Source of the DNA: Nitrospirota bacterium
Lineage (GTDB): Bacteria; Nitrospirota; Thermodesulfovibrionia; Thermodesulfovibrionales; UBA9159
Length of the DNA stretch: 64,000 nt
NCBI GenBank assembly: GCA_963699545.1
Contig: CAVOUE010000006.1
Span: forward strand, 384,001 to 448,000
Direction of reading: 5' to 3'
A program made the translations under genes and the position numbers. Positions 14,445-27,605 of the stretch are shown in pieces (the stretch's first letter is position 1; the number at the start of each line of letters is the position of its first letter). The notes under the pieces were generated by a model. It was not told the origin of the DNA, did no database searches, and saw only the letters and a list, made by a program, of their open reading frames with translations.

Positions 14445-15869
14445 TCACCCCTCCTTCCTCTCAGCGCCTTCAATGGTCTTTATGGCCTTCTCCAGCCTCT
14501 TCAGTGTCTTTTCTTTTCCGACGATCCCGAGCACTTCAAATATGCCGGGGCTTTCGGTCCCCCCGGTGATCGCAACGCGGACCGGTTGAGCAAGGTTGCC
14601 GAGCTTTATGCCGTGCCTCTCCACGAGCGCCTTGAATACCTTTTCCAGTTCCGGGGCAGAAAAATCCTCAAGGTGAACAAGGTCCTGCTTCAACTCCGTC
14701 AAATAGGGCAGGCTCTTCTCATTGAGGAATTTTGTTCGTGCCTTTTCGTCGTAGTCTACGTCTTCAGCAATATAATAGCGCAGGGAGACCGCAAGTTCCA
14801 CCAGCGTCTTTGCCCGCTCTCTCAACGTCATGATCGCTTTTGAGAGCCACTGTGTGTCCAGCGCCTGGCCTTCATGTATGATCTTTTCCCTTTCCAGAAA
14901 AGGGATGACGAGTTCAGCCAGTCTCAGGGGATCTGAGTTCATGATGTACTGGCTATTGAGCCAGAGGAGTTTCTCCGGGTTGAATACCGCAGAGGACTTC
15001 CCGACGGTCTCAAAGGAAAAGTATTGTATCAACTCTTCCCGTGTGAACACTTCCTGGTCTCCGTAGGACCACCCAAGGCGGACGAGGTAGTTCACAAGGG
15101 CATCGGGAAGATACCCCATCTCCTTATACGCCATGACCGAGGTCGCCCCGTGTCTCTTGCTCAGTCTCGCCTTGTCGGAGCCGAGGATCATGGGGAGGTG
15201 CGCAAACGCCGGTATCTCATACCCCAAAGCCTTATAGATATGGATCTGTTTCGGGGTGTTGTTCAGGTGGTCGTCGCCCCTGATGACATGGGTTATCTTC
15301 ATGTCCACATCATCCACCACCACAACGAAATTATACGTGGGGGCGCCGTCGGACCTCATAATGATCAGGTCATCGAGCTGGCTGTTCTCGAACACCACGC
15401 TTCCCTTGATCATGTCGTTCACCACGGTCTGCCCTTCCTGGGGCATTTTGAACCGTACCACCGGCTCTCTGCCTGCCACGGGTTGTTTCAGGTCCCGGCA
15501 TCTGCCGTCATATTTCGGCGTCTTTCCCCGGGCCAGGGCCTCCTGCCTCCGCTGCTCCAGCTCTTCAGCGGAACAATAGCAGCGATATGCTTTGCCTGCC
15601 TTTATCAGTCTTTCAATATACCCCCTGTATACATCGAACCTTTCGGTTTGCCTGAAGGGCCCCTCGTCCCAGTCGAGGTTGAGCCACTTCATCCCCTCGA
15701 TGATGGCCTCGATATATTCATCCGTGGAGCGACTCGTGTCGGTGTCCTCTATCCTCAGAATGAAGGTGCCCCCCTCATGCCGCGCAAAAAGCCAGTTGAA
15801 AAGGGCGGTCCTCGCCCCGCCTATGTGCAGATGGCCCGTGGGACTGGGTGCAAAACGAACACGTACCAT
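14445..15869 (-). CDS. gltX: Glutamate--tRNA ligase
   Basis: [14 protein letters not shown] and LSKRHG motifs. Confidence 0.97.
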
Positions 15870-16089
15870 TACCTCTGTATCCTCCTCATTTGCGGATATT
15901 ATACCCTAAAAAATACATTAAGCAGGGATATGGATGACTGAAAAGTCTTTTGCAGCGACACCTTTTTAGATGACATAATGGAATTCTTGATGAGCATAGG
16001 ATTGTCCGTATAACTTCCAGAATTACATCATGTCATATGGTAAGATCAAGTCGAAATTAAAAGACTTTGAAGGCATTCGTGTCCCTGCT

Positions 16090-17481
16090 TCACAGCTTCC
16101 TCTTAAACTCCAGCTTCAGGAACCTCTTTGTCCCCTCAGTTACCTTGAACCTCTCATCTCCCCTGTAGCCGGCGATCCAGACGATGTTGCCACCCGATAC
16201 AATGATCGGTATCGCATCCCGTTCATCTCTCGGCACCTTCTCATCCACAAAAAAGTCCTGGAGTTTCTTTTTTTTCCCGAATCCCAGAGGATAAAAGACG
16301 TCGCCCTTTTCCCTTGGTCTGACCGTAAGGAGGGCTCCCGCTTTATCTGCATCGAAAACCGCTTTGGTCTTTCCGTCCCCGGAGCTGTCAACTCTTTCCT
16401 CTGCGGACGCTACGATCGTAGCCCTGATCTCCTTCAAAACAACCTCTCCCGGCACGGTGAGAGTCAAGGCCTTCAGCCTTTGAGGAGGCTCCGATGTCAT
16501 CACCAAAGTCGAATAGGTCTTTACGACCCTCAACCCCTTTGGCAGGGAGAGCCTGTCTCCGTGCCTTCCTTTTTTTATCAGGTCGATTATGCCTTCAATG
16601 TGAATGAATTCCATGCCCCGAAGGCCCTTTGTCTCATCAATGGCCCGTCTCAAAACCCTTCTGAGGATGACCTTTTCCATCGACTCCATTGGTGTGAGAA
16701 AGAGTTCAATGCGGAGTTCAGTCTTTCTTGAAATCAGTTTCATAAGGGTCATCGTGACGATGAGATCAAAATATTTTTCCTCCTCCCTCAGCACGTCCAT
16801 GGTCCTTGATACCGTCCGGACGATACCCGGATTCATCTTCCTGATCACAGGCATTACCAGCAGCCTGAGCTTGTTCCTGAGGTAATCTTCCTTCACGTTC
16901 GACGAATCGACCATGAAATTGATTTGCTCTTCATCAAGAAAGGCCTCTATTTGGCTTCGCTCAATTTCTATGAGAGGCCTGATAATTCTCGCTCTCACCG
17001 GAGGTATGCCGCCGAGGCCCACGGGTCCCGATCCCCTGAAAAATCTCATAAGGAACGTCTCGACCTGGTCATCCGCGGTATGTCCCATGGCCAGACGGCT
17101 GGCCTTCAGGTCCGCGAAAACCTCATCGAATGCCTTATAACGCAGTTCCCGCGCAGCCTCCTGCTTGTTCATGCCCTGTTCCTTCGCATACGCCTTCACG
17201 TCAATGGATCGAACGATAAGGGGCACGGACAATCCATCGCAGAGTTTTCTGCAGAACGCTATCTCGTCAGGGGTCTCCCCGGGCCGTAACCCGTGATCTA
17301 CATACACGGCATGGAGCTTCGAGTGAAATTCATCCTTCAGCTTATGAAGGACGGTGAGGAGGCAGACGGAATCCGGCCCTCCCGAGAGGCCTACCAGGAC
17401 CATATCTCCCCTGGAGAGCATCGAGTACTTCGCGATCGTTGTTCTTACCTTTTCGATGAATGTATGTTTTTCCTGGGTCAT
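16090..17481 (-). CDS. tilS: tRNA(Ile)-lysidine synthetase
   Basis: SGGPDS PP-loop, HTADDQVET, YLRNKLR, C-terminal KKLQDFF domain. Confidence 0.95.
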   Translation of the reverse strand: MTQEKHTFIEKVRTTIAKYSMLSRGDMVLVGLSGGPDSVCLLTVLHKLKDEFHSKLHAVYVDHGLRPGETPDEIAFCRKLCDGLSVPLIVRSIDVKAYAKEQGMNKQEAARELRYKAFDEVFADLKASRLAMGHTADDQVETFLMRFFRGSGPVGLGGIPPVRARIIRPLIEIERSQIEAFLDEEQINFMVDSSNVKEDYLRNKLRLLVMPVIRKMNPGIVRTVSRTMDVLREEEKYFDLIVTMTLMKLISRKTELRIELFLTPMESMEKVILRRVLRRAIDETKGLRGMEFIHIEGIIDLIKKGRHGDRLSLPKGLRVVKTYSTLVMTSEPPQRLKALTLTVPGEVVLKEIRATIVASAEERVDSSGDGKTKAVFDADKAGALLTVRPREKGDVFYPLGFGKKKKLQDFFVDEKVPRDERDAIPIIVSGGNIVWIAGYRGDERFKVTEGTKRFLKLEFKRKL

Positions 17482-17517
17482 AAGGGTCAGAAGAAAATAA
17501 TATGCATCATAATTAAT

Positions 17518-17551
17518 TCATAAATTATATCGCACGCGACATAATTTATGA
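17518..17551. promoter_or_regulatory. 16-bp inverted repeat, probable operator
   Basis: tcataaattatatcgc-ac-gcgacataatttatga, one mismatch. Confidence 0.5.
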
Positions 17552-17608
17552 TAAGAAATTAATCTCTTTATCTTTCAATTGGTTAAATGAGGGCCAACTG
17601 CGATATTC

Positions 17609-17637
17609 TTGACACATCCTTCGAATTCCCCTAAAAT
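17609..17637 (+). promoter_or_regulatory. Strong sigma70 promoter, Pc-like for the cassette array
   Basis: TTGACA-17 bp-TAAAAT. Confidence 0.75.
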
Positions 17638-17659
17638 CATCACAAAAAGACGTATGCGG

Positions 17660-17679
17660 CTCAAAAAAGAATGTTGCAC
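17660..17679 (+). other. attI-like recombination point at the start of the array
   Basis: A-rich AAAAAAGAAT followed by GTTGCAC (17673-17679), the exact complement of the first cassette's R'' GTGCAAC. Confidence 0.55.
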
Positions 17680-17716
17680 GTAAATAAAATTAACTGCATA
17701 TAAAGACAAATAGAAA

Positions 17717-18226
17717 ATGAAGCCAATAAAGATGACCAAGGCAATGCTGCCAAATCTTCCTAATGAAGTTTTCGACATGTTTATCACACAAATAAATGAC
17801 ACCGACTCAAGCCCCTTTGATTCCATGCTCGGTGGCAGATGGTTTTACTATTTTGGAGAACTTACTATTGAGGCGTTCAATCAACTCCGGTGGATAAGAA
17901 CCACGCTTTCCTTCAAGGAGGCAATCTTTCATCCAACTTCGGGTAGCGACATCGATAGACTTGTCCATTATTGCAAACTTGAGGGCAAGCCGATAGCCAG
18001 GGCACTTTATCCAGGGTATCCCCCGGATTCCCCAGCCCGTCTCGCTGGGATCAAAGAAGTTATTATGAATACAGGACGGCTCCCTGCACCCATTGTAGCC
18101 ATAAGGACAGACAACGGCATCAGGGTTCTTGACGGTTGCCACAGGCTTGCCGCTGCTGTGTCTTGTCCGAACCCAGAAGATATACCTCTTGATGTATGGA
18201 TAGGCGAAAGACCAGAAAATAAATGA
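17717..18226 (+). CDS. Cassette ORF with a ParB/sulfiredoxin-like domain
   Basis: PAPIVAIRTDNGIRVLDGCHRLAAA matches the PI-x-V...DGxHR signature. Confidence 0.7.
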   Translation: MKPIKMTKAMLPNLPNEVFDMFITQINDTDSSPFDSMLGGRWFYYFGELTIEAFNQLRWIRTTLSFKEAIFHPTSGSDIDRLVHYCKLEGKPIARALYPGYPPDSPARLAGIKEVIMNTGRLPAPIVAIRTDNGIRVLDGCHRLAAAVSCPNPEDIPLDVWIGERPENK

Positions 18227-18232
18227 AAGACC

Positions 18233-18320
18233 GTGCAACAAGAGGCTCGACCCGACTGTCGATAGCCCTGTGGCTTTCAGGTTACGCTTATTCTTCAGCG
18301 GGTCAGCCTTGGCGTTGTGG
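18233..18320 (+). other. attC site
   Basis: R'' GTGCAAC, 5-nt spacer, L'' GCTCGACC (extra C), L' GGTCAGC, 6-nt spacer, R' GTTGTGG. Confidence 0.9.
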
Positions 18321-18383
18321 CGACAATATATTTAAATAACCTCCGGCAATACGTTATAATTTGGTCATAGCGGAGGTAAAAAT

Positions 18384-18587
18384 ATGAAGACAGAATTTAC
18401 TGCAATAATGAAACAGGCTGGAGAATGGTGGATCGAAGAAATTCCAGGCGTAAACTGTCAGGAACGTACACGTGAAGACTTAATTGAAACCCTTCGTCTT
18501 ACGCTTAAGGAAGCACTCGAATTTAACCGTCAAGACGCTATCGCCGCCGTAGGCTCAGGATACACAGAAGAAACAATCGCAGTATGA
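18384..18587 (+). CDS. hicB: HicB-family antitoxin
   Basis: IEEIPGVNCQERTREDLIETL motif; stop overlaps the hicA-like start. Confidence 0.8.
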   Translation: MKTEFTAIMKQAGEWWIEEIPGVNCQERTREDLIETLRLTLKEALEFNRQDAIAAVGSGYTEETIAV

Positions 18588-18676
18588 AACGCAGTGACCT
18601 GCTGAAATATCTGCGGTCACAAGGCTGTGAATTTATCAGAGAAGGTAGCCGTCACTCTTGGATGCTTTTTTGGTAA
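18584..18676 (+). pseudogene. hicA: Truncated HicA-family toxin
   Basis: MKRSDLLKYLRSQGCEFIREGSRHSW then an early stop after 30 aa. Confidence 0.75.
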
Positions 18677-18690
18677 GCTGCCGGTTCCCC

Positions 18691-18713
18691 GCCGCTGAGT
18701 TCTCTCGTTAATA
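18691..18713 (+). other. Right half of an attC site (left half deleted)
   Basis: L' GCTGAGT, 6-nt spacer TCTCTC, R' GTTAATA; the GTTAA pairs with the next cassette's R'' GCTTAAC. Confidence 0.65.
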
Positions 18714-18731
18714 CCTACCCATACTTTTATA

Positions 18732-18769
18732 TTGCTATCATTACATAGCTTTGGTATATTATAGCTATG
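18732..18769 (+). promoter_or_regulatory. Cassette-internal promoter and operator for brnTA
   Basis: TTGCTA-17 bp-TATATT with inverted repeat CATAGCT...AGCTATG. Confidence 0.55.
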
Positions 18770-19054
18770 AAGAAGACACGCTTCGAATGGGACGATGAGA
18801 AAGATAAAGAAAATCAAATTAAACATACTGTTTCGTTTGCATTGGCTCAACGTGCTTTTCTCGATCCTCATCGTGTCATAGCGGAAGACGTCAGCCATAG
18901 CAGCGATGAAAAGAGATTTTACTGTATCGGTCGTGTCAGCGAAGGCATTATGACCGTCAGGTTTACTTATAGAGGAAATATCATCCGCATCTATGGTGCC
19001 GGATATTGGAGAAAAGGGAGGAAACTATATGAAGAGCAAAACAAAATATACTGA
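18767..19054 (+). CDS. BrnT-family toxin
   Basis: FEWDDEKDKENQIKH start, EKRFYCIG, IRIYGA. Confidence 0.9.
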   Translation: MKKTRFEWDDEKDKENQIKHTVSFALAQRAFLDPHRVIAEDVSHSSDEKRFYCIGRVSEGIMTVRFTYRGNIIRIYGAGYWRKGRKLYEEQNKIY

Positions 19055-19268
19055 TGAGCCGATGGGCAAGCTGAAAGTAATTAAAGACTTTCTTCCACCT
19101 CCGGAACAACTCGTCATGAAAGAAGAAAATGTAAAGGTGACCATTGCATTGAACAAATCAAGCATCGAGTTTTTCAAAAGAGAGGCGCAGCGTTACCATA
19201 CCTCGTATCAAAAAATGATTCGGCGGCTGATAGATTTATATGCCTCACACCATAAAAAGAGCGCTTAA
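19029..19268 (+). CDS. BrnA/CopG-like ribbon-helix-helix antitoxin
   Basis: DFLPPPEQL, KVTIAL...FFK...YQKMIR; overlaps brnT. Confidence 0.85.
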   Translation: MKSKTKYTDEPMGKLKVIKDFLPPPEQLVMKEENVKVTIALNKSSIEFFKREAQRYHTSYQKMIRRLIDLYASHHKKSA

Positions 19269-19285
19269 CACTTATAAGGCCCCCC

Positions 19286-19800
19286 GCTGTCAAGAGAAAA
19301 AGCGTTCCTAATCGGAAATCAGAATAAAGACATTTCCTTAATGTTCTTCAGATTGCCGGTGAGTTCCGACTTGGTTTCCGAAAGCGGCGTCAGATCAATA
19401 TCTGCACCAAACACTTATCGAGGCTCGATAGCCGGTCAGCACGGAACAATGTATCAATTCCGTACTGCCGACGACAGTGGAGAGACCAATCGGTCTTGTT
19501 CTCCACGGCCTGGAAACAATTCAGAACCCTTATACCGTCCTCATCAAAGGTCTGGTTCATCCCGACTAATCGGGATCCTCCAGTTAGTATCAGGCTCGGG
19601 TAAGGGGCAGAACCTGTAACAATCTTTTATGTCTTATAGAGACCGGGCGTCCTAATCAAAAAAGATAGGCGCCGGGTATCGCATTCCATGATGCCCTATC
19701 CATGATCGAAGCCATATACAAAGGCATGTTCTAAAGAGCATCCGTCGGACTTAACCCTAATGGCGCCAGTTAGACGCAACAGGCTCACCCGGTCCCAGCC
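19286..19800 (-). ncRNA. Predicted bridge/seek RNA region of the IS (exact ends unknown)
   Basis: Hairpin-rich and contains short matches to both strands of the attC target and to the IS-end junction. Confidence 0.7.
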
Positions 19801-20844
19801 TTATTTCGCAAAGAAGACTTCTGGATGAAACACCTCTTTTCTTTTCAGGATATGATAGGCAGCCCTCGCAAGCTTATGTGCCAAAATGGTCAGGGACTTC
19901 GCCTTGCCGTGCTTCCTTGCCAGTTTGTCCCGATACTTTACCGCTTCGGGGTTTCTCCTGAGGAAAAGAACGGCTGCTTCTGAGAAGGCCCATTTAAGAT
20001 GTGCATTGCCGATCTTCTTGCCCGAGGTGCCGAGTTTCTTGCCTGCCGACTCCTTGGCGGATTTAACAAGTCTGCAGTATGAGACGAAATCCTGCACTCT
20101 GGGGAAGCGGTCGATATCGTGAATCTCATAGAGAATGACCAGGCCGAGGATTCTTCCTATACCGGGTATGGAGCGAAGACGGAAATAGGAATCGGCATCA
20201 TCGACCTTTGCGATAAGGGATATCTCATGTTCAACACGGTGAAGCAGTTGATCATAGTGGTCTATGAGGCCAAGATCCAGTTCGATGCTCTTTTGGACAC
20301 TCATGTCGGTGAACCGTTCGGCCAAGCCTTCGCGGTTGCCTTTCTTTCCGATATTCTTCCCTATCTCCGGAAGGTTGTATTGATGATTGGTGTTTTGCAC
20401 ATGGGCAAGGAGTTCGGCCCGCTTGCGGACAAGGTGCAACCTTCTTCTCAAGAGATCCCTCGTGGACCGCATTTCGGAAGGGTAGACATACGCCATAGGC
20501 ATCATGCCGCCCCTTAGCAGCACCGCTATCTTATGAGCGTCTACCTTGTCGTTTTTGGCTTTGCCTCCGTGGATGGCTTTCATGTACAGGGCATGGCCCA
20601 GGACAAACGGGATATTCTCCTTATTGCAGAGATCGGCGATCCAGTACCAGGTGAAGATGCATTCTACGGCCACGACAATGTCCTCACGATACGGCGCGAT
20701 AGTCTTAAGGAAGATGTCGGGATTTGTTTTGATGTCCCGGTGCAGAACGATTCTTCCCTCCTGATTGAGGATGCAAAGGTACATGGTCTTGGCATGCAGA
20801 TCGATTCCGCAAGAAAATTTGTGCTGCTTGGTGTAAAATCTCAT
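19801..20844 (-). CDS. IS110-family DEDD recombinase/transposase
   Basis: GIDLH, VAVE, KNDKVDA (DEDD), SIPGIG, ESAGK serine region; AGGAGG SD before ATG 20844. Confidence 0.95.
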   Translation of the reverse strand: MRFYTKQHKFSCGIDLHAKTMYLCILNQEGRIVLHRDIKTNPDIFLKTIAPYREDIVVAVECIFTWYWIADLCNKENIPFVLGHALYMKAIHGGKAKNDKVDAHKIAVLLRGGMMPMAYVYPSEMRSTRDLLRRRLHLVRKRAELLAHVQNTNHQYNLPEIGKNIGKKGNREGLAERFTDMSVQKSIELDLGLIDHYDQLLHRVEHEISLIAKVDDADSYFRLRSIPGIGRILGLVILYEIHDIDRFPRVQDFVSYCRLVKSAKESAGKKLGTSGKKIGNAHLKWAFSEAAVLFLRRNPEAVKYRDKLARKHGKAKSLTILAHKLARAAYHILKRKEVFHPEVFFAK

Positions 20845-21026
20845 TTGAGGCCTCCTATGGGAAAAGGTTTTGGGTCCCTGAATCATACCTGCTTCGGGTA
20901 TGGTTCAGGGGGGCCTTAATGAGTATCAATTAAATCCGCGGGACGGGCAATGGCCCGCCCGTGATTTAACGCGTTGGACGGAACTGGGAAAAGAAAGGAG
21001 AACAGAAGACCCAGTGCACGTGTTGG

Positions 21027-21062
21027 TCTGATACAAACTCTGATACAAACTCTGAAACAAAC
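21027..21062 (+). repeat. Three copies of a 12-bp tandem repeat
   Basis: tctgatacaaac twice, then tctgaaacaaac. Confidence 0.85.
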
Positions 21063-21076
21063 AAGGAGGTGAACAA

Positions 21077-21427
21077 ATGATATCAAAGCCAATGATACAG
21101 GATGCTATTGTAACAGATGGGGATAAGTATTCGGTTGTTCTGGAAAACGAACGCGTTAGGGTGCTCAGATACCACGATACGCCGGGGGACAGAACTTCGC
21201 AACACGCTCACCCCGACTACGTATTGTACGCGGAGTCTTCTTTCAAGCGGCGTTTGACATTTCCTGATGGTCAGAAGCGTGAGGTCGACGTCAAAGCGGG
21301 GAGTGTCGTTTGGATGAAAGGGCATACACACATCGGCGAGAACATAGGAGATACGAATACTGACGTAGTAATTGTGGAACTGAAAGAGAACAGAACGTTA
21401 GACAAGACGGAGAAGAATCTGAAATAA
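21077..21427 (+). CDS. Small cupin-domain protein (cassette ORF)
   Basis: LENERVRVL, HAHP, GHTHIGENIG, VELK; AGGAGG SD. Confidence 0.85.
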   Translation: MISKPMIQDAIVTDGDKYSVVLENERVRVLRYHDTPGDRTSQHAHPDYVLYAESSFKRRLTFPDGQKREVDVKAGSVVWMKGHTHIGENIGDTNTDVVIVELKENRTLDKTEKNLK

Positions 21428-21452
21428 GCGCGTCAGGCAACTAAACGCTACG

Positions 21453-22415
21453 TTAGCCCACTTCAAGGCCATACTGCCTTATCAGTCTCAGGTCGTCATC
21501 ATAGGGCGTTCCCGCTGTTGTGAGATAATTTCCGGTCAGCAGTGAATCGGCCCCTGCCATGAAGACCATTGAATTGAACTCTCCAAGCGTTTGCCTCCTC
21601 CCTCCGCACACCCGTATCTCCTTTTGAGGGAGTGCGAACCGGTAAAGGCTGATGATCTTCAGGGCATCAAAGGGATGCAAGGGAACCCTGTCCTCCATCG
21701 CTGTTCCCTTGACCGCGATGAGAAAATTAATGGGGACGGAATCCACATCAAGCTCTCTCAGCGCCTGCGCCATCTCTATCCTGTCCTGCCACGACTCACC
21801 GATGCCGAATATACCCCCGGAGCAGAGGGAAAGACCAATGGATTTTGCAGCCATGATCGTCCTTGTCTTGTCCGCATAGGTGTGGGTCGAACAGATCTCA
21901 GGGAAGAACCTCTCCGAAGCTTCAAGGTTATGGTGATACCGCACCAGACCGCTGTCCCTGAGCATCGACAGTTCATCCTTCTCGAGAAGGCCGAGGGTCG
22001 CGCAGGGAAGGAGACCGAGCCCCCGGACCTTTCCGATCATCGAAGCTATCTCCTTCAGCTCTCCCTTGCCCGCCTTCCTTCCGCTGGTGACGATGCAGAA
22101 CCTCTTCACCCCGGCCTCTTTCGCTTCTCTGGCTTTTTCCAATACAGCGCTTTCATTCACAAGGGGATGCACGGGGACATCGGCTTTGCTCTTTGATGAC
22201 TGTGCACAATAGGAACAGTCTTCGGAACATGCGCCCGATTTGGCGTTTATGATGGAGCAGAGATCAACGCTGCTTCCCCTGTATCTTTCCCGTATTTTGC
22301 AGGCCGCGGCAAAGAGCTGAAAGAGCTCACTGCCTGCGAGGGAAGCAATGTGGGACAGGTCGCCTCCGGAAGGCACGTCGCCTGCCAATACTTTCTCTGT
22401 GAGCCTGTCTATCAT
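21453..22415 (-). CDS. bioB: Biotin synthase
   Basis: CSEDCSYCAQS radical-SAM motif, YHHNLE, VPINFL, TGNYLTT. Confidence 0.95.
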   Translation of the reverse strand: MIDRLTEKVLAGDVPSGGDLSHIASLAGSELFQLFAAACKIRERYRGSSVDLCSIINAKSGACSEDCSYCAQSSKSKADVPVHPLVNESAVLEKAREAKEAGVKRFCIVTSGRKAGKGELKEIASMIGKVRGLGLLPCATLGLLEKDELSMLRDSGLVRYHHNLEASERFFPEICSTHTYADKTRTIMAAKSIGLSLCSGGIFGIGESWQDRIEMAQALRELDVDSVPINFLIAVKGTAMEDRVPLHPFDALKIISLYRFALPQKEIRVCGGRRQTLGEFNSMVFMAGADSLLTGNYLTTAGTPYDDDLRLIRQYGLEVG

Positions 22416-22418
22416 TAT

Positions 22419-23495
22419 TCAGTCGTTGACAGACTCAATGATCCTGGCTTTATCGGTGACTTCCCTGACAGTCACGGACCCTATCTTCTGAGGGAGGATA
22501 AACTTCAACTTTCCCGCCACCGCCTTCTTGTCGAGACGCATCGAGGAAAGGACCCCCTCTGCATCAACGTCCGACCGTATCTCTGAAGGCAGTCCATACG
22601 CCGCTATGAGGGAACGCACCCGCTCTACCTCTCCCCCGTCCATATAGCCAAGGTGCGAAGAGAGCCTTGCCTCGAGATACATCCCTATGGCCACGGCCTC
22701 CCCGTGCAGATACGTTGTGTATCCGGTGGCCGTTTCCAGCGCATGGCCTATCGTATGGCCGTAATTCAGGATCGCCCTCAGCCCACCCTCTCTTTCGTCC
22801 CTGGAGACGATCTCCGACTTGATCTCACAGGAACGCTTGATGATATGCTCTAGGGCATGCCGGTCAAGGTTCAGTATCTTTTCCCTGTTCTCCTCAAGGA
22901 ACCGGAAAAGCTCCTCGTCCCATATGACGCCGTACTTGATGACTTCGGCCATCCCGGCAATGAACTGACGCTTCGGCAGTGATGCAAGCGTGCTAATATC
23001 CGCCCATACGAGCCCCGGCTGATAGAACGTCCCTATCATGTTCTTCCCGAGAGGATGGTTCACCCCGGTCTTTCCGCCTACGGAGCTGTCCACTTGGGCA
23101 AGAAGGGTCGTGGGGACCTGAATGAACGGGATCCCTCTCATATAGGCTGAGGCGACGAACCCGGTGATATCGCCGATCACGCCGCCGCCAAGGGCGATCA
23201 ACGCAGACGCCCTGTCGAACCTCTGTTTAAGAAGTTCTCCGAAGAGGTAATAAGCCCAGAGGAGCTCCTTGTACCCCTCACCGTCAGGGATGAGGATCAC
23301 GGGCGCATCGAACCCGGCCTTGCTCAGGGAATCGGAAACCCTGGCGCCGTAGAACCCGTGAACGGTCGGATTGCTGATAACGGCCACGCGGCTGGGATGA
23401 AGCCCCTTCACCTTTTCGCCAAGGTCCCTGAGCGTGTCAGCGCCGATAAAGATGCCGTAACTCCTCTCTCCGAGCTCAACCCTTATCTCCTGCAT
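22419..23495 (-). CDS. aroB: 3-dehydroquinate synthase
   Basis: GGGVIGD, TTLLAQVDSSVGGKT, LNYGHTIGHA. Confidence 0.97.
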   Translation of the reverse strand: MQEIRVELGERSYGIFIGADTLRDLGEKVKGLHPSRVAVISNPTVHGFYGARVSDSLSKAGFDAPVILIPDGEGYKELLWAYYLFGELLKQRFDRASALIALGGGVIGDITGFVASAYMRGIPFIQVPTTLLAQVDSSVGGKTGVNHPLGKNMIGTFYQPGLVWADISTLASLPKRQFIAGMAEVIKYGVIWDEELFRFLEENREKILNLDRHALEHIIKRSCEIKSEIVSRDEREGGLRAILNYGHTIGHALETATGYTTYLHGEAVAIGMYLEARLSSHLGYMDGGEVERVRSLIAAYGLPSEIRSDVDAEGVLSSMRLDKKAVAGKLKFILPQKIGSVTVREVTDKARIIESVND

Positions 23496-23993
23496 CCCAT
23501 CCTCTCCAGTATCTCCTTTGCGACAAGAAAGGGAGACTTCTCATCGGTTTCGATCATGATATCCGCCTTCTCGTAAAAGGGCTTCCTGAATTCCAGAAGC
23601 TCTTTAATCTTTTTGAGCGGGTCCTTCACCTGGAGAAGGGGTCTTTCATCGTTGCCCCTGGTCCTTCCGAGGACCGTCTCCCGGACTTGCCCAGAGACAT
23701 ACGATAACCCCATGCTCTCTGAGGATATCCATGTTCTCCTGCCGGAGGACCGCTCCGCCGCCCGTGGAGATGATCACGCTCCGGTCCTGCGAAACTTTCC
23801 TTATCATCCCGGTCTCTATATCCCTGAAGGCGGGTTCCCCGAGCGTGCTGAAGATCTCATGTATGGTCATGTTCCGGGCCTTGACGATCTCATCGTCCAC
23901 ATCGATGATCTTCCACCCAAGGATCCGGGAAAGCTCTCTTCCCACCGCCGTCTTGCCCGCACCCATGAAACCGGTAAGAACAATGTTCTTCAT
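23483..23993 (-). CDS. aroK: Shikimate kinase (one frameshift near 23675)
   Basis: GFMGAGKT, STGGGAV; C-terminal RPLL...RKPFYEKAD lies in the other frame. Confidence 0.9.
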
Positions 23994-24031
23994 TTATGAG
24001 CTAACCTTCTTGATTCAGCCTTCGATTCTTG

Positions 24032-24195
24032 CCACAGAGGCACTGAGACACAGAGATAAACCTAAAAAGACTGAACGTTTCATGCTTCATCGATTCCTTG
24101 AGATTCAAAACCCTCCGAGCCTGATCCAAAAAAATCTTGACGTAATCTTGAGGCTGAAATGCGCTTGTCTTCTCCGTGCCTCGGTGTCTCTGTGG
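24032..24195. repeat. 25-bp imperfect inverted repeats built of 8-mers, enclosing about 115 bp
   Basis: ccacagaggcactgagacacagaga (24032-24056) and tctccgtgcctcggtgtctctgtgg (24171-24195). Confidence 0.8.
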
Positions 24196-24209
24196 TTAAT
24201 TGTCTTTTG

Positions 24210-25459
24210 TCAGAATTGTTTTACATATTCCGTGTACGACCTATAGTTCCTCATAACCTCTTCCATGTCGTCTCCGCCGAACTTCTCGAGAAAGGCATCA
24301 GCAATGACCAGGGCAGTCATCGCTTCACCGACTACCGCTGCCGCCGGCACCGCGCAGACGTCAGAACGCTCGTAGGCAGCCTCGATCGGCTCCTTGCTGA
24401 CCATATCCACAGAATTGAGGGGTCTCCTCAACGTAGGGATCGGCTTCATGCCCGCCCTGATGGTAACGGGCATTCCGTTCGTCATGCCTCCCTCGATCCC
24501 GCCTGCGTTGTTGGTCTTCCGGTAAAAACCAGGGCGTAACGTGTAACGTGCAGCGTGTGGAGAACCCGGGGTGTTGACCTTTGACTTCCGACTTCTCGCT
24601 TCTGGCTTCTGCTCGTAGAATATCTCATCCATAACCTCGGAACCGGACCTGCCCGACATCTCAAATCCGAGGCCGACCTCCACCGCCTTGATCGCCTGAA
24701 CGGACATCAGCGCCCGGGCGAGTCTTCCGTCCAATCTTCTGTCCCACTGGATGTAGCTTCCCACCCCAGGCGGAACGCCTGTCACAAATACCTCGAAAAC
24801 ACCCCCGAGGGAGTTACCCTCCTTCATGGCGCTCTTAATGACCGAGACCATTTTCTTGGAAGCATCCGCATCAGGACACCTCACCGACGAGGTCTCAGCT
24901 TTCTCAAACATTTCGAAAAGTTCTTTTTCCTTAAGCTGACTGCTGACCGCTGACCGCTGACTGCCTATCTGTATCACATAACTTCCGACCCTGATACCGA
25001 ATTCGGAGAGGAATCTCTTTGCCACAGCCCCCAGGGCGACCCTCATGGCGGTTTCCCTCGCACTTGACCGCTCCAGGATGTTCCGTATGTCGTCCTGGTG
25101 ATACTTTATGGCCCCTGACAGGTCCGCATGCCCCGGCCTCGGCTTTGTTACCGGAGGTATCGAGCCCTTGAACCCGGCATCTTCGGACATGCCCTCAGCC
25201 CAGTTCTTGTGATCCCTGTTCTCTATCAGAAGGGCGATGGGAGAACCGATGGTCTTGCCCCAGCGGACCCCGGAGAGGATCTCGGCATGGTCCGACTCAA
25301 TCTTCATCCTTCCCCCCTGCCGAAGCCGGACTGTCTTCTTTTCAGTTCGACGTCGATATCAGAGGAAGAAAGGGCAAGGTTTGCCGGAACGCCTTCCAGA
25401 ATCCCGGTGAGGGCCTTTCCATGGGATTCCCCTGCGGTAAGAAATCTAAGGCTTGACAT
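24210..25459 (-). CDS. aroC: Chorismate synthase (frameshift near 25320; repeat-derived in-frame insertions)
   Basis: [14 protein letters not shown] start, [32 protein letters not shown]. Confidence 0.95.
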
Positions 25460-25493
25460 GGCACATTGTGTCCAATCCTCTCCGGTCTCCGGC

Positions 25494-27605
25494 CTATTCC
25501 CTGCGTCTCAGAATCGCCGCAAGCAGGAGGGGCATCAGCATCACCGCAAAGTCAGCCACCGCCGTGGGGGTGTTCTGACGTGCGCCGACAGAGCAGCCGC
25601 CTCCTCCTCCCCCGCCACTGCTGCTGCCGCCCCCGTCTCCTGAACTCTGGGTTGTTGCGGAGGCTTCATTGGAATAGAGGGAATTCCCTGCTGCTGCACT
25701 GAAGGCCCTGACCCTGTGAGTAAAAGAGGTGCCGGGGGGAAGCCCTGACTGCGTGAACGTCGTGGTGTTCGGCCCCACAGTTGCTGTCTGGACAAAGCCA
25801 CCTGCATCCTTCCTTTCAATGGCATATCCCTCTTCACTCTGTGAGTTGTCTGTCCATGTAAGCATTATCTGCGTTGTGGATATCCCGGTAGCGGTGAGCC
25901 CGGTGGGAGGGTTCAGGGGTGTTGTGACGGACGCCTCACCGGAATAAGAAGAATCTCCCTCTATGAGAGCACCCCCTGGAGGATTGGGGAGGGAGTTAAA
26001 TGCCCTCACTCTGTATGTCGATGTCGTGCCGTCAGCAAGACCATTGTCGGTAAATGTGGTCACGTTCGCAGCGAGTGTTGTTATCTCGCTGAAAGAGCCT
26101 CCTCCAGTTTTCTTCTCAACTTTGTACCCGTCCTCACCTGTAGCGTTGTCCGTCCACGTGAGACCGATCTGGGTCGCGGATGTTGCTGAGGCAGTAAGGT
26201 TGGTCGGTGTCAGCAGGGATGACAATGCCTTGTATGCATTGATCCTTCCTCCTGTCATTATCTTGCCATTGAGCGTTGGCAATACATCGACGTACCTTAG
26301 GATTGTCCCGCGTATCTGGGAATAGGTGAAGTTCGTGTAGTAACTGTATAGCAATCCCGCCAGGCCCGAGACAAAAGGGGTCGACATGGAAGTGCCGGAT
26401 ATGAAACCGTACGTACTCGGCAGAAGGGTACTCAGAATGCTTACCCCCGGCGCCGCAACATGAACCGAGTTGCCGAAATTCGAAAAAAACGCCAGGCTGT
26501 CGCCCTGGTCCGTGGCGGTAACGGATATTATATTCGGCAAACTGTAATTCGCCGGATAATTCGGCGCCTGATCATTACTTGTTCCGTCATTGCCGGCAGC
26601 GGCCATGAGGAGAACCCCTGCACTGTTCGCGGCGCTCACTGCAGCAAGCTCGGACTGCGCAACACCACCACCCGCAAAACTCGCATTCATCGCCTTTATA
26701 TTCACTCCCCTGTTCTTCATCATCACCGCGTAGTCAATGGCAGCGACCTCATCTCCAATGGACCCGTCACCATCTGCATTGAGGAACTTCAACGGCATGA
26801 GCTTCACATTCCACACCACACCGGCAACGCCTGTCCCGTTATTTCCAACTGCGCCCACAATCCCGGACACATGGGTTCCATGGCCCTCGCTGTCGTTATC
26901 CATGGGGTTGTTCCCCGGTAATTTTGGGATAATGCAGGCGAACGTCGATTGATTAAACTCTGCGCACGTAGTGAAATCCCATCCTCTACAGTCGTTAATA
27001 AACCCATTGCCGTCATGATCGATGCCGTCAGTACAAGTCTCCCCCGGATTTGTCCATATATTCTGCGTCAAATCAGGATGATTAAGATCGATCCCCGTAT
27101 CCACGACCGCAATAACAACGGTGCTGTTCCCCGTGCTGATATCCCACGCCTGGGGCGCATTTATCTTCGGGAGTGCATATTGCTGGCTGAAAAACGGATC
27201 ATTGGGCGTCACCGAAGCCCGTCTTATATAATTAGGCTCGGCATATTCCACGGTCGGGTCTGACATATATTTGATAATTCCATCTCTTACCGAAAGGCCC
27301 TGGGGAAGCTTCACGTGTTCAAGATTGGGGACAAGAGCATACCTCCGGAGCGATGTCGCGCCCAACGCCTGGTGTGTCTTCAGAGAGGAAGCGGCCAGGA
27401 CTCCTCCCCTGAACTTCACAAGAAGTTCTCCTTCCCTGTATTTCCCCCTTTCCATAGTGGATAAAACAGACTGAACCGAGACCCGGGAAGAGCTGACCTC
27501 GTTCGACGCAGCTGAAATGGGAGAATCCGAAGAAAGCCCAGGGGTCTTATCGCTCCCGCAGGATACCAGGAACAGGAACAGGAAAGTGTAAACAATTCTC
27601 TTCAT
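25494..27605 (-). CDS. S8 subtilisin-like lipoprotein with two FN3 domains and a C-terminal GGC-TM-RRR sorting signal
   Basis: Lipobox [19 protein letters not shown] triad; tail [11 protein letters not shown]...[11 protein letters not shown]. Confidence 0.92.

Follow-up and report, generated by a model that had tools for sequence, protein, structure and literature searches.

The 3' non-coding end of an intact IS1111-type insertion sequence, at positions 19286-19800 of the window (the whole stretch of DNA that was analysed, 64,000 nucleotides), is quite probably the gene of a guide RNA (seekRNA or bridge RNA) belonging to an active element. As read from the sequences of this element and its relatives, the RNA would comprise a target loop (module A), an auxiliary loop that does not specify the site (module B), and a region carrying the left-donor guide (module C). 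RNA-guided targeting by IS1111 elements, including those that target attC, was published in 2024 (PMC11187229); a literature search of article texts returned no three-module 534-nt end, no family-wide second target-type loop and no insertion point in the R'' box. RNA-guided IS110/IS1111 recombinases are under development as genome-writing tools, and the guide RNAs described have one target loop. A structurally conserved second target-type loop is carried here by a large natural family, which includes members on plasmids of culturable Vibrio, Alteromonas and Pseudoalteromonas, and the family offers a testable case for the role of an extra loop, be it excision control, synapsis, site capture, or nothing.

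The insertion sequence and its ends

The insertion sequence is intact and 1663 bp long (Table 1). A search of the same genome with positions 19200-21100 recovered a second copy on a different contig, 100% identical and spanning exactly 19267-20929, and the element boundaries were set by this exact span. In the predicted 347-aa recombinase, both Pfam matches exceed the curated cut-offs and correspond to the DEDD (RuvC-like) N-terminal domain and the Transposase_20 C-terminal domain. The subterminal inverted repeats, TT-GATACTCA-TTAAGGCCCCCC on the left and GGGGGGCCTTA-TAAGTG-TT on the right, are kept in relatives, and the non-coding DNA amounts to 534 nt downstream of the transposase gene as against 85 nt upstream. 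The Pfam domains, the subterminal repeats and the long 3' non-coding end are characteristic of the IS1111 group, whose guide RNAs are encoded downstream of the gene (PMC11187229; PMC11208160).

Table 1. Features of the IS1111-type element and of its predicted guide RNA, in window coordinates
Feature	Positions	Strand	Basis
Complete IS1111-type insertion sequence	19267..20929	-	Identical second copy; ends TTGATACTCATTAAGGCC... and ...GGCCTTATAAGTGTT common to relatives
Transposase/recombinase gene, 347 aa	19801..20844	-	PF01548 DEDD_Tnp_IS110, E 1.7e-14; PF02371 Transposase_20, E 1.3e-19
Left end, 85 nt, with core TT at 20929-20928 and subterminal repeat TTAAGGCCCCCC	20845..20929	-	Read from sequence
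Left flank: attC-like hairpin, imperfect, that reaches up to the insertion point	20930..20985	-	Read from sequence
Module A, long stem with internal loop, predicted target-binding loop	19639..19796	-	Covariance model R2, matching 97/100 sources
A 5' loop strand UUGCGUCUAA, predicted right-target guide, would pair the top strand of core TT and right flank	19770..19779	-	Covariation with flanks
A 3' loop strand UAUCUUUUUU + GAU, predicted left-target guide, in the sense of left flank and core, then first 3 nt of left IS end	19655..19667	-	Covariation
Module B, second target-type loop paralogous to A, with a short hairpin where A has its 100-nt arm	19527..19610	-	Covariance model R1
B 5' loop strand AUACUAA + C	19583..19590	-	CUAA-C kept as in A; without right-flank covariation
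B 3' loop strand ACCUUU + GAU	19543..19551	-	UU|GAW register; tracks left flank -2, -3
Conserved hairpin between B and C	19477..19506	-	RNAalifold columns 344-373; compensatory changes in 3/9 sequences, at several pairs
Module C, multi-hairpin, predicted donor-binding region	19295..19437	-	Conserved blocks in distant relatives
C 5' strand GAUAAGUGUU, predicted left-donor guide, identical to right IS end and core	19410..19419	-	Covariation with IS end
Right end: TTGACA (19293-19288), subterminal repeat GGGGGGCCTTA, terminal TAAGTG and core TT	19267..19293	-	Sequence, relatives

Insertion is orientation- and site-specific and produces no target duplication: about 60 flank pairs were read in one orientation as ...GTCnGCTGCAGCGnn|TT|AGRC..., with only the 2-nt core in common. 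Among relatives, the left end begins with a variable base (T/A/G/C), as expected where the target supplies the left copy of the core, and the right end almost always finishes with GTT. In IS621, the left junction keeps the core of the target and the top strand is exchanged downstream of the core (PMC11208158); the variable left-end base and the near-constant GTT right end fit an exchange of this kind.

The genomic setting of this copy was also inspected. The element adjoins a BrnT-like toxin gene (PF04365, E 7.7e-20) and a weak BrnA-like antitoxin match below the cut-off (18767-19268, plus strand); the BrnA-like ORF ends in a stop codon TAA (19266-19268) that overlaps the IS core, an arrangement resembling that of a gene cassette whose attC begins at the stop codon. 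Upstream of the transposase start, the left end holds a 14-nt inverted repeat (20876-20910; 93% complementary, arms separated by 7 nt) that may form a hairpin in the 5' UTR. The hexamer TTGACA near the right end is conserved in the family. In the circular form it could supply a junction promoter with its -35 box, but the resulting distance of 21 nt to the GATACT of the left end is long. No sigma-70-type promoter was found inside the 534-nt non-coding end, and the guide RNA would probably be cotranscribed with the transposase gene.

Relatives of the element

Relatives were confirmed by tblastn in 304/344 candidate stretches from one-genome-per-species contigs and in 560/595 from metagenome contigs. 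The family thus has at least 864 relatives in many phyla, nearly all of which, where examined, possess the three modules A, B and C. The family analysis used the best 80 of the 304 and the best 80 of the 560 relatives (protein identity 59-96%); the ends of their elements were placed via conserved terminal motifs, and the flanks were then read. Nine close relatives could be aligned over the entire 3' end, with a mean column identity of 76%. Members at 51-55% identity occur on plasmids of Vibrio campbellii, Alteromonas and Pseudoalteromonas, and beyond the family's own clade the best plasmid matches show about 33% identity. Insertion sequences are nested on the Vibrio campbellii plasmid (L086, 1068-3544), where the family member directly follows another IS110-family transposase gene and an IS4 transposase. 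Part of the non-coding end is repeated in the right flank of another relative (L009, 4069-4130), which points to a second element there, in tandem or truncated.

Three modules in the 3' non-coding end

Alignment of the close relatives, together with RNAalifold, delineated three similarly built units. Module A reads GAGCCUG - UUGCGUCUAA - CUGG...(arm of about 100 nt)... - UAUCUUUUUU - GAUUAGGAC, module B reads GAGCCUG - AUACUAA - CUGG...(short hairpin)... - ACCUUU - GAUGAGGAC, and module C reads GAGCCUC - GAUAAGUGUU - UGG..., followed by several hairpins. The repeated build GAGCCUG - guide - CUGG ... UU-GAW-UAGGAC exceeds chance. The covariance model of module B recovers one copy per element, in 79/81 and 75/82 sources. 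Compensatory changes were seen at 40/42 pairs of module A, in which 90.9% of cells are paired, compared with 67.9% after shuffling and 37-43% after sliding, and at 18/21 pairs of module B (87.6% versus 75.9% shuffled and 27-55% slid); the alignments were fitted to the covariance models, which biases these figures somewhat towards the modelled structure. The 534-nt end folds at -197.9 kcal/mol, compared with -165.3 +/- 7.1 for 100 shuffles (z -4.6), and the minimum-energy fold recovers module A. An Rfam scan of positions 17000-23000 of the window gave 0 matches at E up to 1. The model of module B recovers neither A nor C at default filters, and the homology of A and B therefore rests on their common motifs and layout. 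Long-range helices between the flanks of B and module C were also proposed by RNAalifold; they have no compensatory support and are not claimed.

An IS1111-type guide RNA on the transposase strand had been proposed in an initial annotation of this region, and the family data agree with it. All motifs listed there were located on the minus strand within the 534-nt end, namely GAGCCTG (19786-19780), GTCTAACTGG (19775-19766), GATTGTTA (19624-19617) and CAGG (19616-19613) for a first domain, GAGCCTG (19597-19591), ACTAACTGG (19588-19580) and GAATTGTT (19522-19515) for a second domain, and, further on, TGATAC (19456-19451), GAGCCT (19426-19421) and ATAAGTG (19418-19412). Among these, ATAAGTG(TT) and both CUAAC strings are genuine parts of guides. 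It is most improbable that the conserved blocks are instead DNA signals, such as recombinase sites or parts of a promoter, with no RNA involved. The conservation of TTGACA near the right end would suit such signals, but two-sided changes preserve pairing in 58/63 tested pairs of A and B, as expected of RNA, and the guide strands co-vary strand-specifically with flanks and ends, as expected of RNA guides; moreover, guide RNAs have been shown experimentally in relatives of the group (PMC11187229).

Module A, the predicted target loop

Judged by covariation with insertion sites, module A is a working target-binding loop and explains where the elements land. The loop strands, held in register, were compared with each element's own flanks and with permuted flanks (5000 permutations, which leave some relatedness among elements uncorrected), using 74-121 independent insertions. 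The 5' strand agrees with the complement of the core and right flank at 3.36 of 6 positions for own flanks and 2.90 for permuted ones (z 6.3, 0/5000; 112 distinct pairs), with signal at right-flank positions r1-r6. The 3' strand is identical to the left flank and core at 2.41 of 6 positions, compared with 1.63 for permuted flanks (z 8.2, 0/5000; 120 distinct pairs), with signal at flank positions -1 to -4. Both tests remain at 0/5000 when similar sites are clustered (86) and when one insertion is kept per guide pair (74). Individual elements illustrate the match: guides of module A ending in GCCGAA stand beside TTCGGC flanks in three relatives (L146, L125, L127), a CACAA guide accompanies a TTGTGC flank in L006, and the 3' strand matches at 11/12 positions in L066. 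In the copy studied here, the U-rich 3' strand fits both of its own insertion sites poorly (1-2 of 7), and a scan of its own 87%-complete genome for the composite target of module A found no site better than shuffled controls.

The 5' strand (...GCGUCUAA) would thus pair with the top strand of the core TT and right flank, while the 3' strand (...UU) would pair with the bottom strand of the left flank and core. The order of the two guides is that published for IS1111 seekRNAs, in which the segment matching the top strand lies 5' (PMC11187229). Two further features of the loop concern the IS ends: the invariant C after AA (19769) has no conserved target base to pair with and could pair with the G of the IS end AAGTG|TT, and the left IS end opens with the bases of the GAU that follows UU. 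By analogy with IS621, both are likely to be handshake-type extensions, and they would fit the IS ends that strand exchange joins to the target.

The second guide segment of each domain had been placed at GATTGTTA (19617-19624) and GAATTGTT (19515-19522), and this placement does not hold. Both strings lie outside the loops, are invariant among close relatives that have different targets, and are unconserved in distant relatives, where they are replaced by ...GATGnnTTTCTAGG.... The second segment is instead the 3' strand of the internal loop (...UU|GAU), as shown for module A.

Module C, with the predicted left-donor guide

The 5' strand of module C reproduces exactly the final 9-10 nt of the right end, core included, and it follows the end when the end changes. 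Variant IS ends matched by the guide of C include ATAGGTGTT (6 distinct pairs), ATACGTGTT (2) and ATAGATGTT (2), and in a Vibrio relative ATATGTGTT appears in both the guide and the IS end. In total, 18/43 distinct pairs are identical over 9 nt, and most others differ at position -4 alone, where the guide has T and the end has G. Since the guide tracks variant IS ends, module C can be assigned the left-donor guide; its 5' strand would pair with the right IS end and core, on their bottom strand. This accords with the earlier proposal of a donor domain after two target-type domains, in which ATAAGTGTT copies the IS end and, as found here, co-varies with it. Donor-binding bases in multi-loops have been described for IS1111 RNAs by Durrant et al. 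(PMC11208160).

A right-donor guide, that is, a complement of TTGATACTC in the left IS end, was found neither by scanning the 534-nt non-coding end nor by reading the alignments. The string TGATAC, formerly listed as a match to the other end, sits in a variable stretch of the alignment and is not a donor guide.

At position -4 of the right end, copies of the same element have either T or G (AAGTGTT/AAGGGTT), as seen in L039, L040 and L041, in the two copies of L037, and in L014, L016, L018 and L065. The donor guide always has U at the equivalent position. In addition, the DNA of the 3' stem of module B reads ATAAGGGTT, which is the G variant of the right end.

Module B, a second target-type loop

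Module B shares its closing motifs and its UU|GAW register with A, and its loop retains CUAA-C, with guide base n1 = U in 108/127 and n2 = C in 112/127 distinct pairs. Two tandem target domains had been read as a natural array by which one recombinase covers a degenerate family of attC sites. As an architecture, the tandem arrangement holds, whereas the widening of target range is contradicted by the sampled insertions. Covariation of guides with insertion sites, which had been proposed as a check, is present for both strands of A (0/5000) and is absent for the 5' strand of B, which agrees with the right flank at 2.03 of 6 positions for own and 2.06 for permuted flanks (z -0.3 in the clustered retest). 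The third guide base of B is complementary to the target in only 11% of cases, which is below random and would suit a loop in which extended pairing is avoided or not made.

It is therefore improbable that A and B are independent full target loops for different attC R'' variants. Such loops might be suspected because B is structurally paralogous to A and shares its core-contacting bases, because the 5' strands of A and B specify different r1r2 in 25/112 distinct cases, which makes different sites addressable in principle, and because the 3' strand of B weakly follows the left flank. However, where A and B disagree, the flanks side with A (11/11 at r1, 13/16 at r2 and 17/25 at r1r2) and hardly with B (0, 2 and 1, respectively). 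No insertion scored above 7 of 14 against B, and no site of the B type was found in the flanks, in the IS interior, or in the own genome (87% complete), where its composite target scored no better than shuffled arms.

Other DNA partners of module B were searched for and rejected. As a donor loop or reader of IS ends, B gave only low-identity peaks of 2-3 of 8 in a +/-40 nt scan of both ends. For the other arm of the target hairpin, its composite target compared with flanks of 150-160 nt gave 8.29-8.61 of 14 for own and 8.38-8.50 for cross comparisons, with a single suggestive case (L017, 12 of 14, on the opposite strand). Inside the IS, nothing was found except self-matches.

The 3' strand of B nevertheless tracks the left flank weakly, at -2 (0.35 versus 0.23) and -3 (0.455 versus 0.33; z 4.5, 0/5000), and it resembles the 3' strand of A (z 4.0). 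Base n1 of B also changes together with n1 of A (5/4/6/112; Fisher p 2e-4, uncorrected for phylogeny). These observations bear on whether B might be a relic duplicate that has no DNA contacts and serves as a scaffold for protein binding or folding, for example by loading a second recombinase dimer or by shaping the long RNA. A scaffold would be in keeping with the strong conservation of B's stems alongside drift at most loop positions, with a third guide base that is anti-complementary to the targets, and with the failure to find a DNA partner in the IS ends, flanks or IS interior; yet a pure scaffold would need neither a 3' strand that follows flank positions -2 and -3 nor an n1 that follows that of A, and CUAA-C and UU|GAW are kept in most relatives. 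We consider a scaffold unlikely, though less so than a second full target loop.

From the shared layout, the retained core bases and the weak left-flank signal, we take module B to be an old duplicate of A, kept family-wide as a short-footprint auxiliary loop that does not set specificity. It would keep only the core contacts and two to three neighbouring guide bases per side, and it may hold a target half-site at the junction or during synapsis. More tentatively, B is possibly a working second DNA-binding loop, such that one RNA would hold the target through A, the donor end through C and a second half-site through B; this half-site could be one of the two IS-flank junctions during excision, or else the attC hairpin's other arm. 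If true, this would be a natural three-loop bridge RNA in which a specificity loop and a short-footprint loop divide the labour.

The target as an attC-like end

The left flank reads ...GTCnGCTGCAGCGnn and is followed by the core TT, and the right flank is AGRC, GGGC or AAGC. On the opposite strand, the flank consensus reads RYYY|AA|n - spacer - CAGCnGAC, which is the R''-L'' side of attC. Rebuilt targets fold at -36.5 kcal/mol, compared with -30.7 for shuffled sequences, and the equivalent right-side window folds at -27.0. In 56/71 rebuilt targets, the junction bases pair with sequence a median of 76 nt upstream, which is an attC-like size. An integron integrase was found above the NCBIfam cut-off in the host genomes of 3/4 relatives. 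The flank consensus, the folding and the integrase neighbourhood in relatives suggest that the target is the R''-side end of attC-like hairpins, as the initial annotation had proposed when it aimed the RNA at attC R'' variants. Modules A and C together would place the element at ...GTCnGCTGCAGCGnn|TT|AGRC..., which corresponds to the R'' end of these hairpins on the opposite strand.

In the own genome (87% complete), no integron integrase exceeded the cut-off, and an inverted-repeat scan of positions 15000-26000 of the window found no series of attC-like hairpins. In one relative (L030, 1-4100; G002:C1, about 1155265-1161600), two tandem copies of the family abut an integron-integrase fragment that contains stop codons. 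A scan of 100 kb around these copies with the target weight matrix gave 44 matches versus 30 in shuffled sequence, with no visible array. At G001:C4:148772-151187, two separate stretches match the integron integrase (residues 1-178 and 238-315), and the gap of about 1.65 kb that divides them is the size of the IS.

Comparison with known RNA-guided elements

ISKpn4, ISPst6 and ISPa25 are IS1111 elements that target attC and have seekRNAs (Siddiquee et al. 2024, PMC11187229). As described there, they share with the present family a DEDD recombinase, a guide RNA encoded downstream, a top-strand match 5' of the bottom-strand match, a target at one end of attC, and a guide containing CUAAC that is read against GTTAG of the R'' side. 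Their RNAs are given as 82-86 nt, or 148-151 nt in the long forms, and are described with a single target region, whereas the present element has a 534-nt end with two target-type loops. Moreover, the tabulated insertion point of ISKpn4 and ISPst6, GAA*CGAATTGTTAG, falls between the R'' box and L'' (PMC13604230), whereas the present family inserts inside the box, at RYYY|AA|N. As these published insertion points set the family apart, it can be regarded as a separate solution to hitting the same attC end, a few bases from the point used by ISKpn4 and ISPst6. The family would accordingly add a second, independent route by which IS1111 elements strike integron cassette boundaries.

The seekRNA of ISEc11, also of the IS1111 family, is similar in its essential 3' non-coding region, its short and long RNAs, its programmable target matches and its subterminal repeats. 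Its non-coding region is reported as about 270 bp with a long RNA of 154 nt, and the published account describes no second target-type loop, in contrast to the 534-nt end examined here. The bridge RNA of IS621, of the IS110 group (Durrant 2024, PMC11208160; Hiraizumi 2024, PMC11208158), likewise has internal loops whose strands read opposite DNA strands around a 2-nt core, a separate donor loop and handshake-type extension bases, and in that system, too, the left junction keeps the target core. It differs in being a 177-nt RNA with two loops encoded upstream, whereas in the present family the order of the guides is reversed, three loops are present and one donor guide strand was found. In the description of IS1111 RNAs given by Durrant et al. 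(PMC11208160), no second target loop is noted.

In addition, the family forms a natural data set on the guide rules of IS1111 elements, as it points to pairing of about 6 nt with the right flank and about 4 nt with the left flank, a likely 1-nt handshake, and retention of the target's core at the left junction. Multi-module RNAs may be wider in the IS1111 group, as suggested by an IS110-family element of 33% identity from a plasmid of Pseudomonas aeruginosa (L085, 3500-3910), whose 3' end shows the string AGCC...ACTGG three times and repeats the element's own right-end bases, ATGGGTG.
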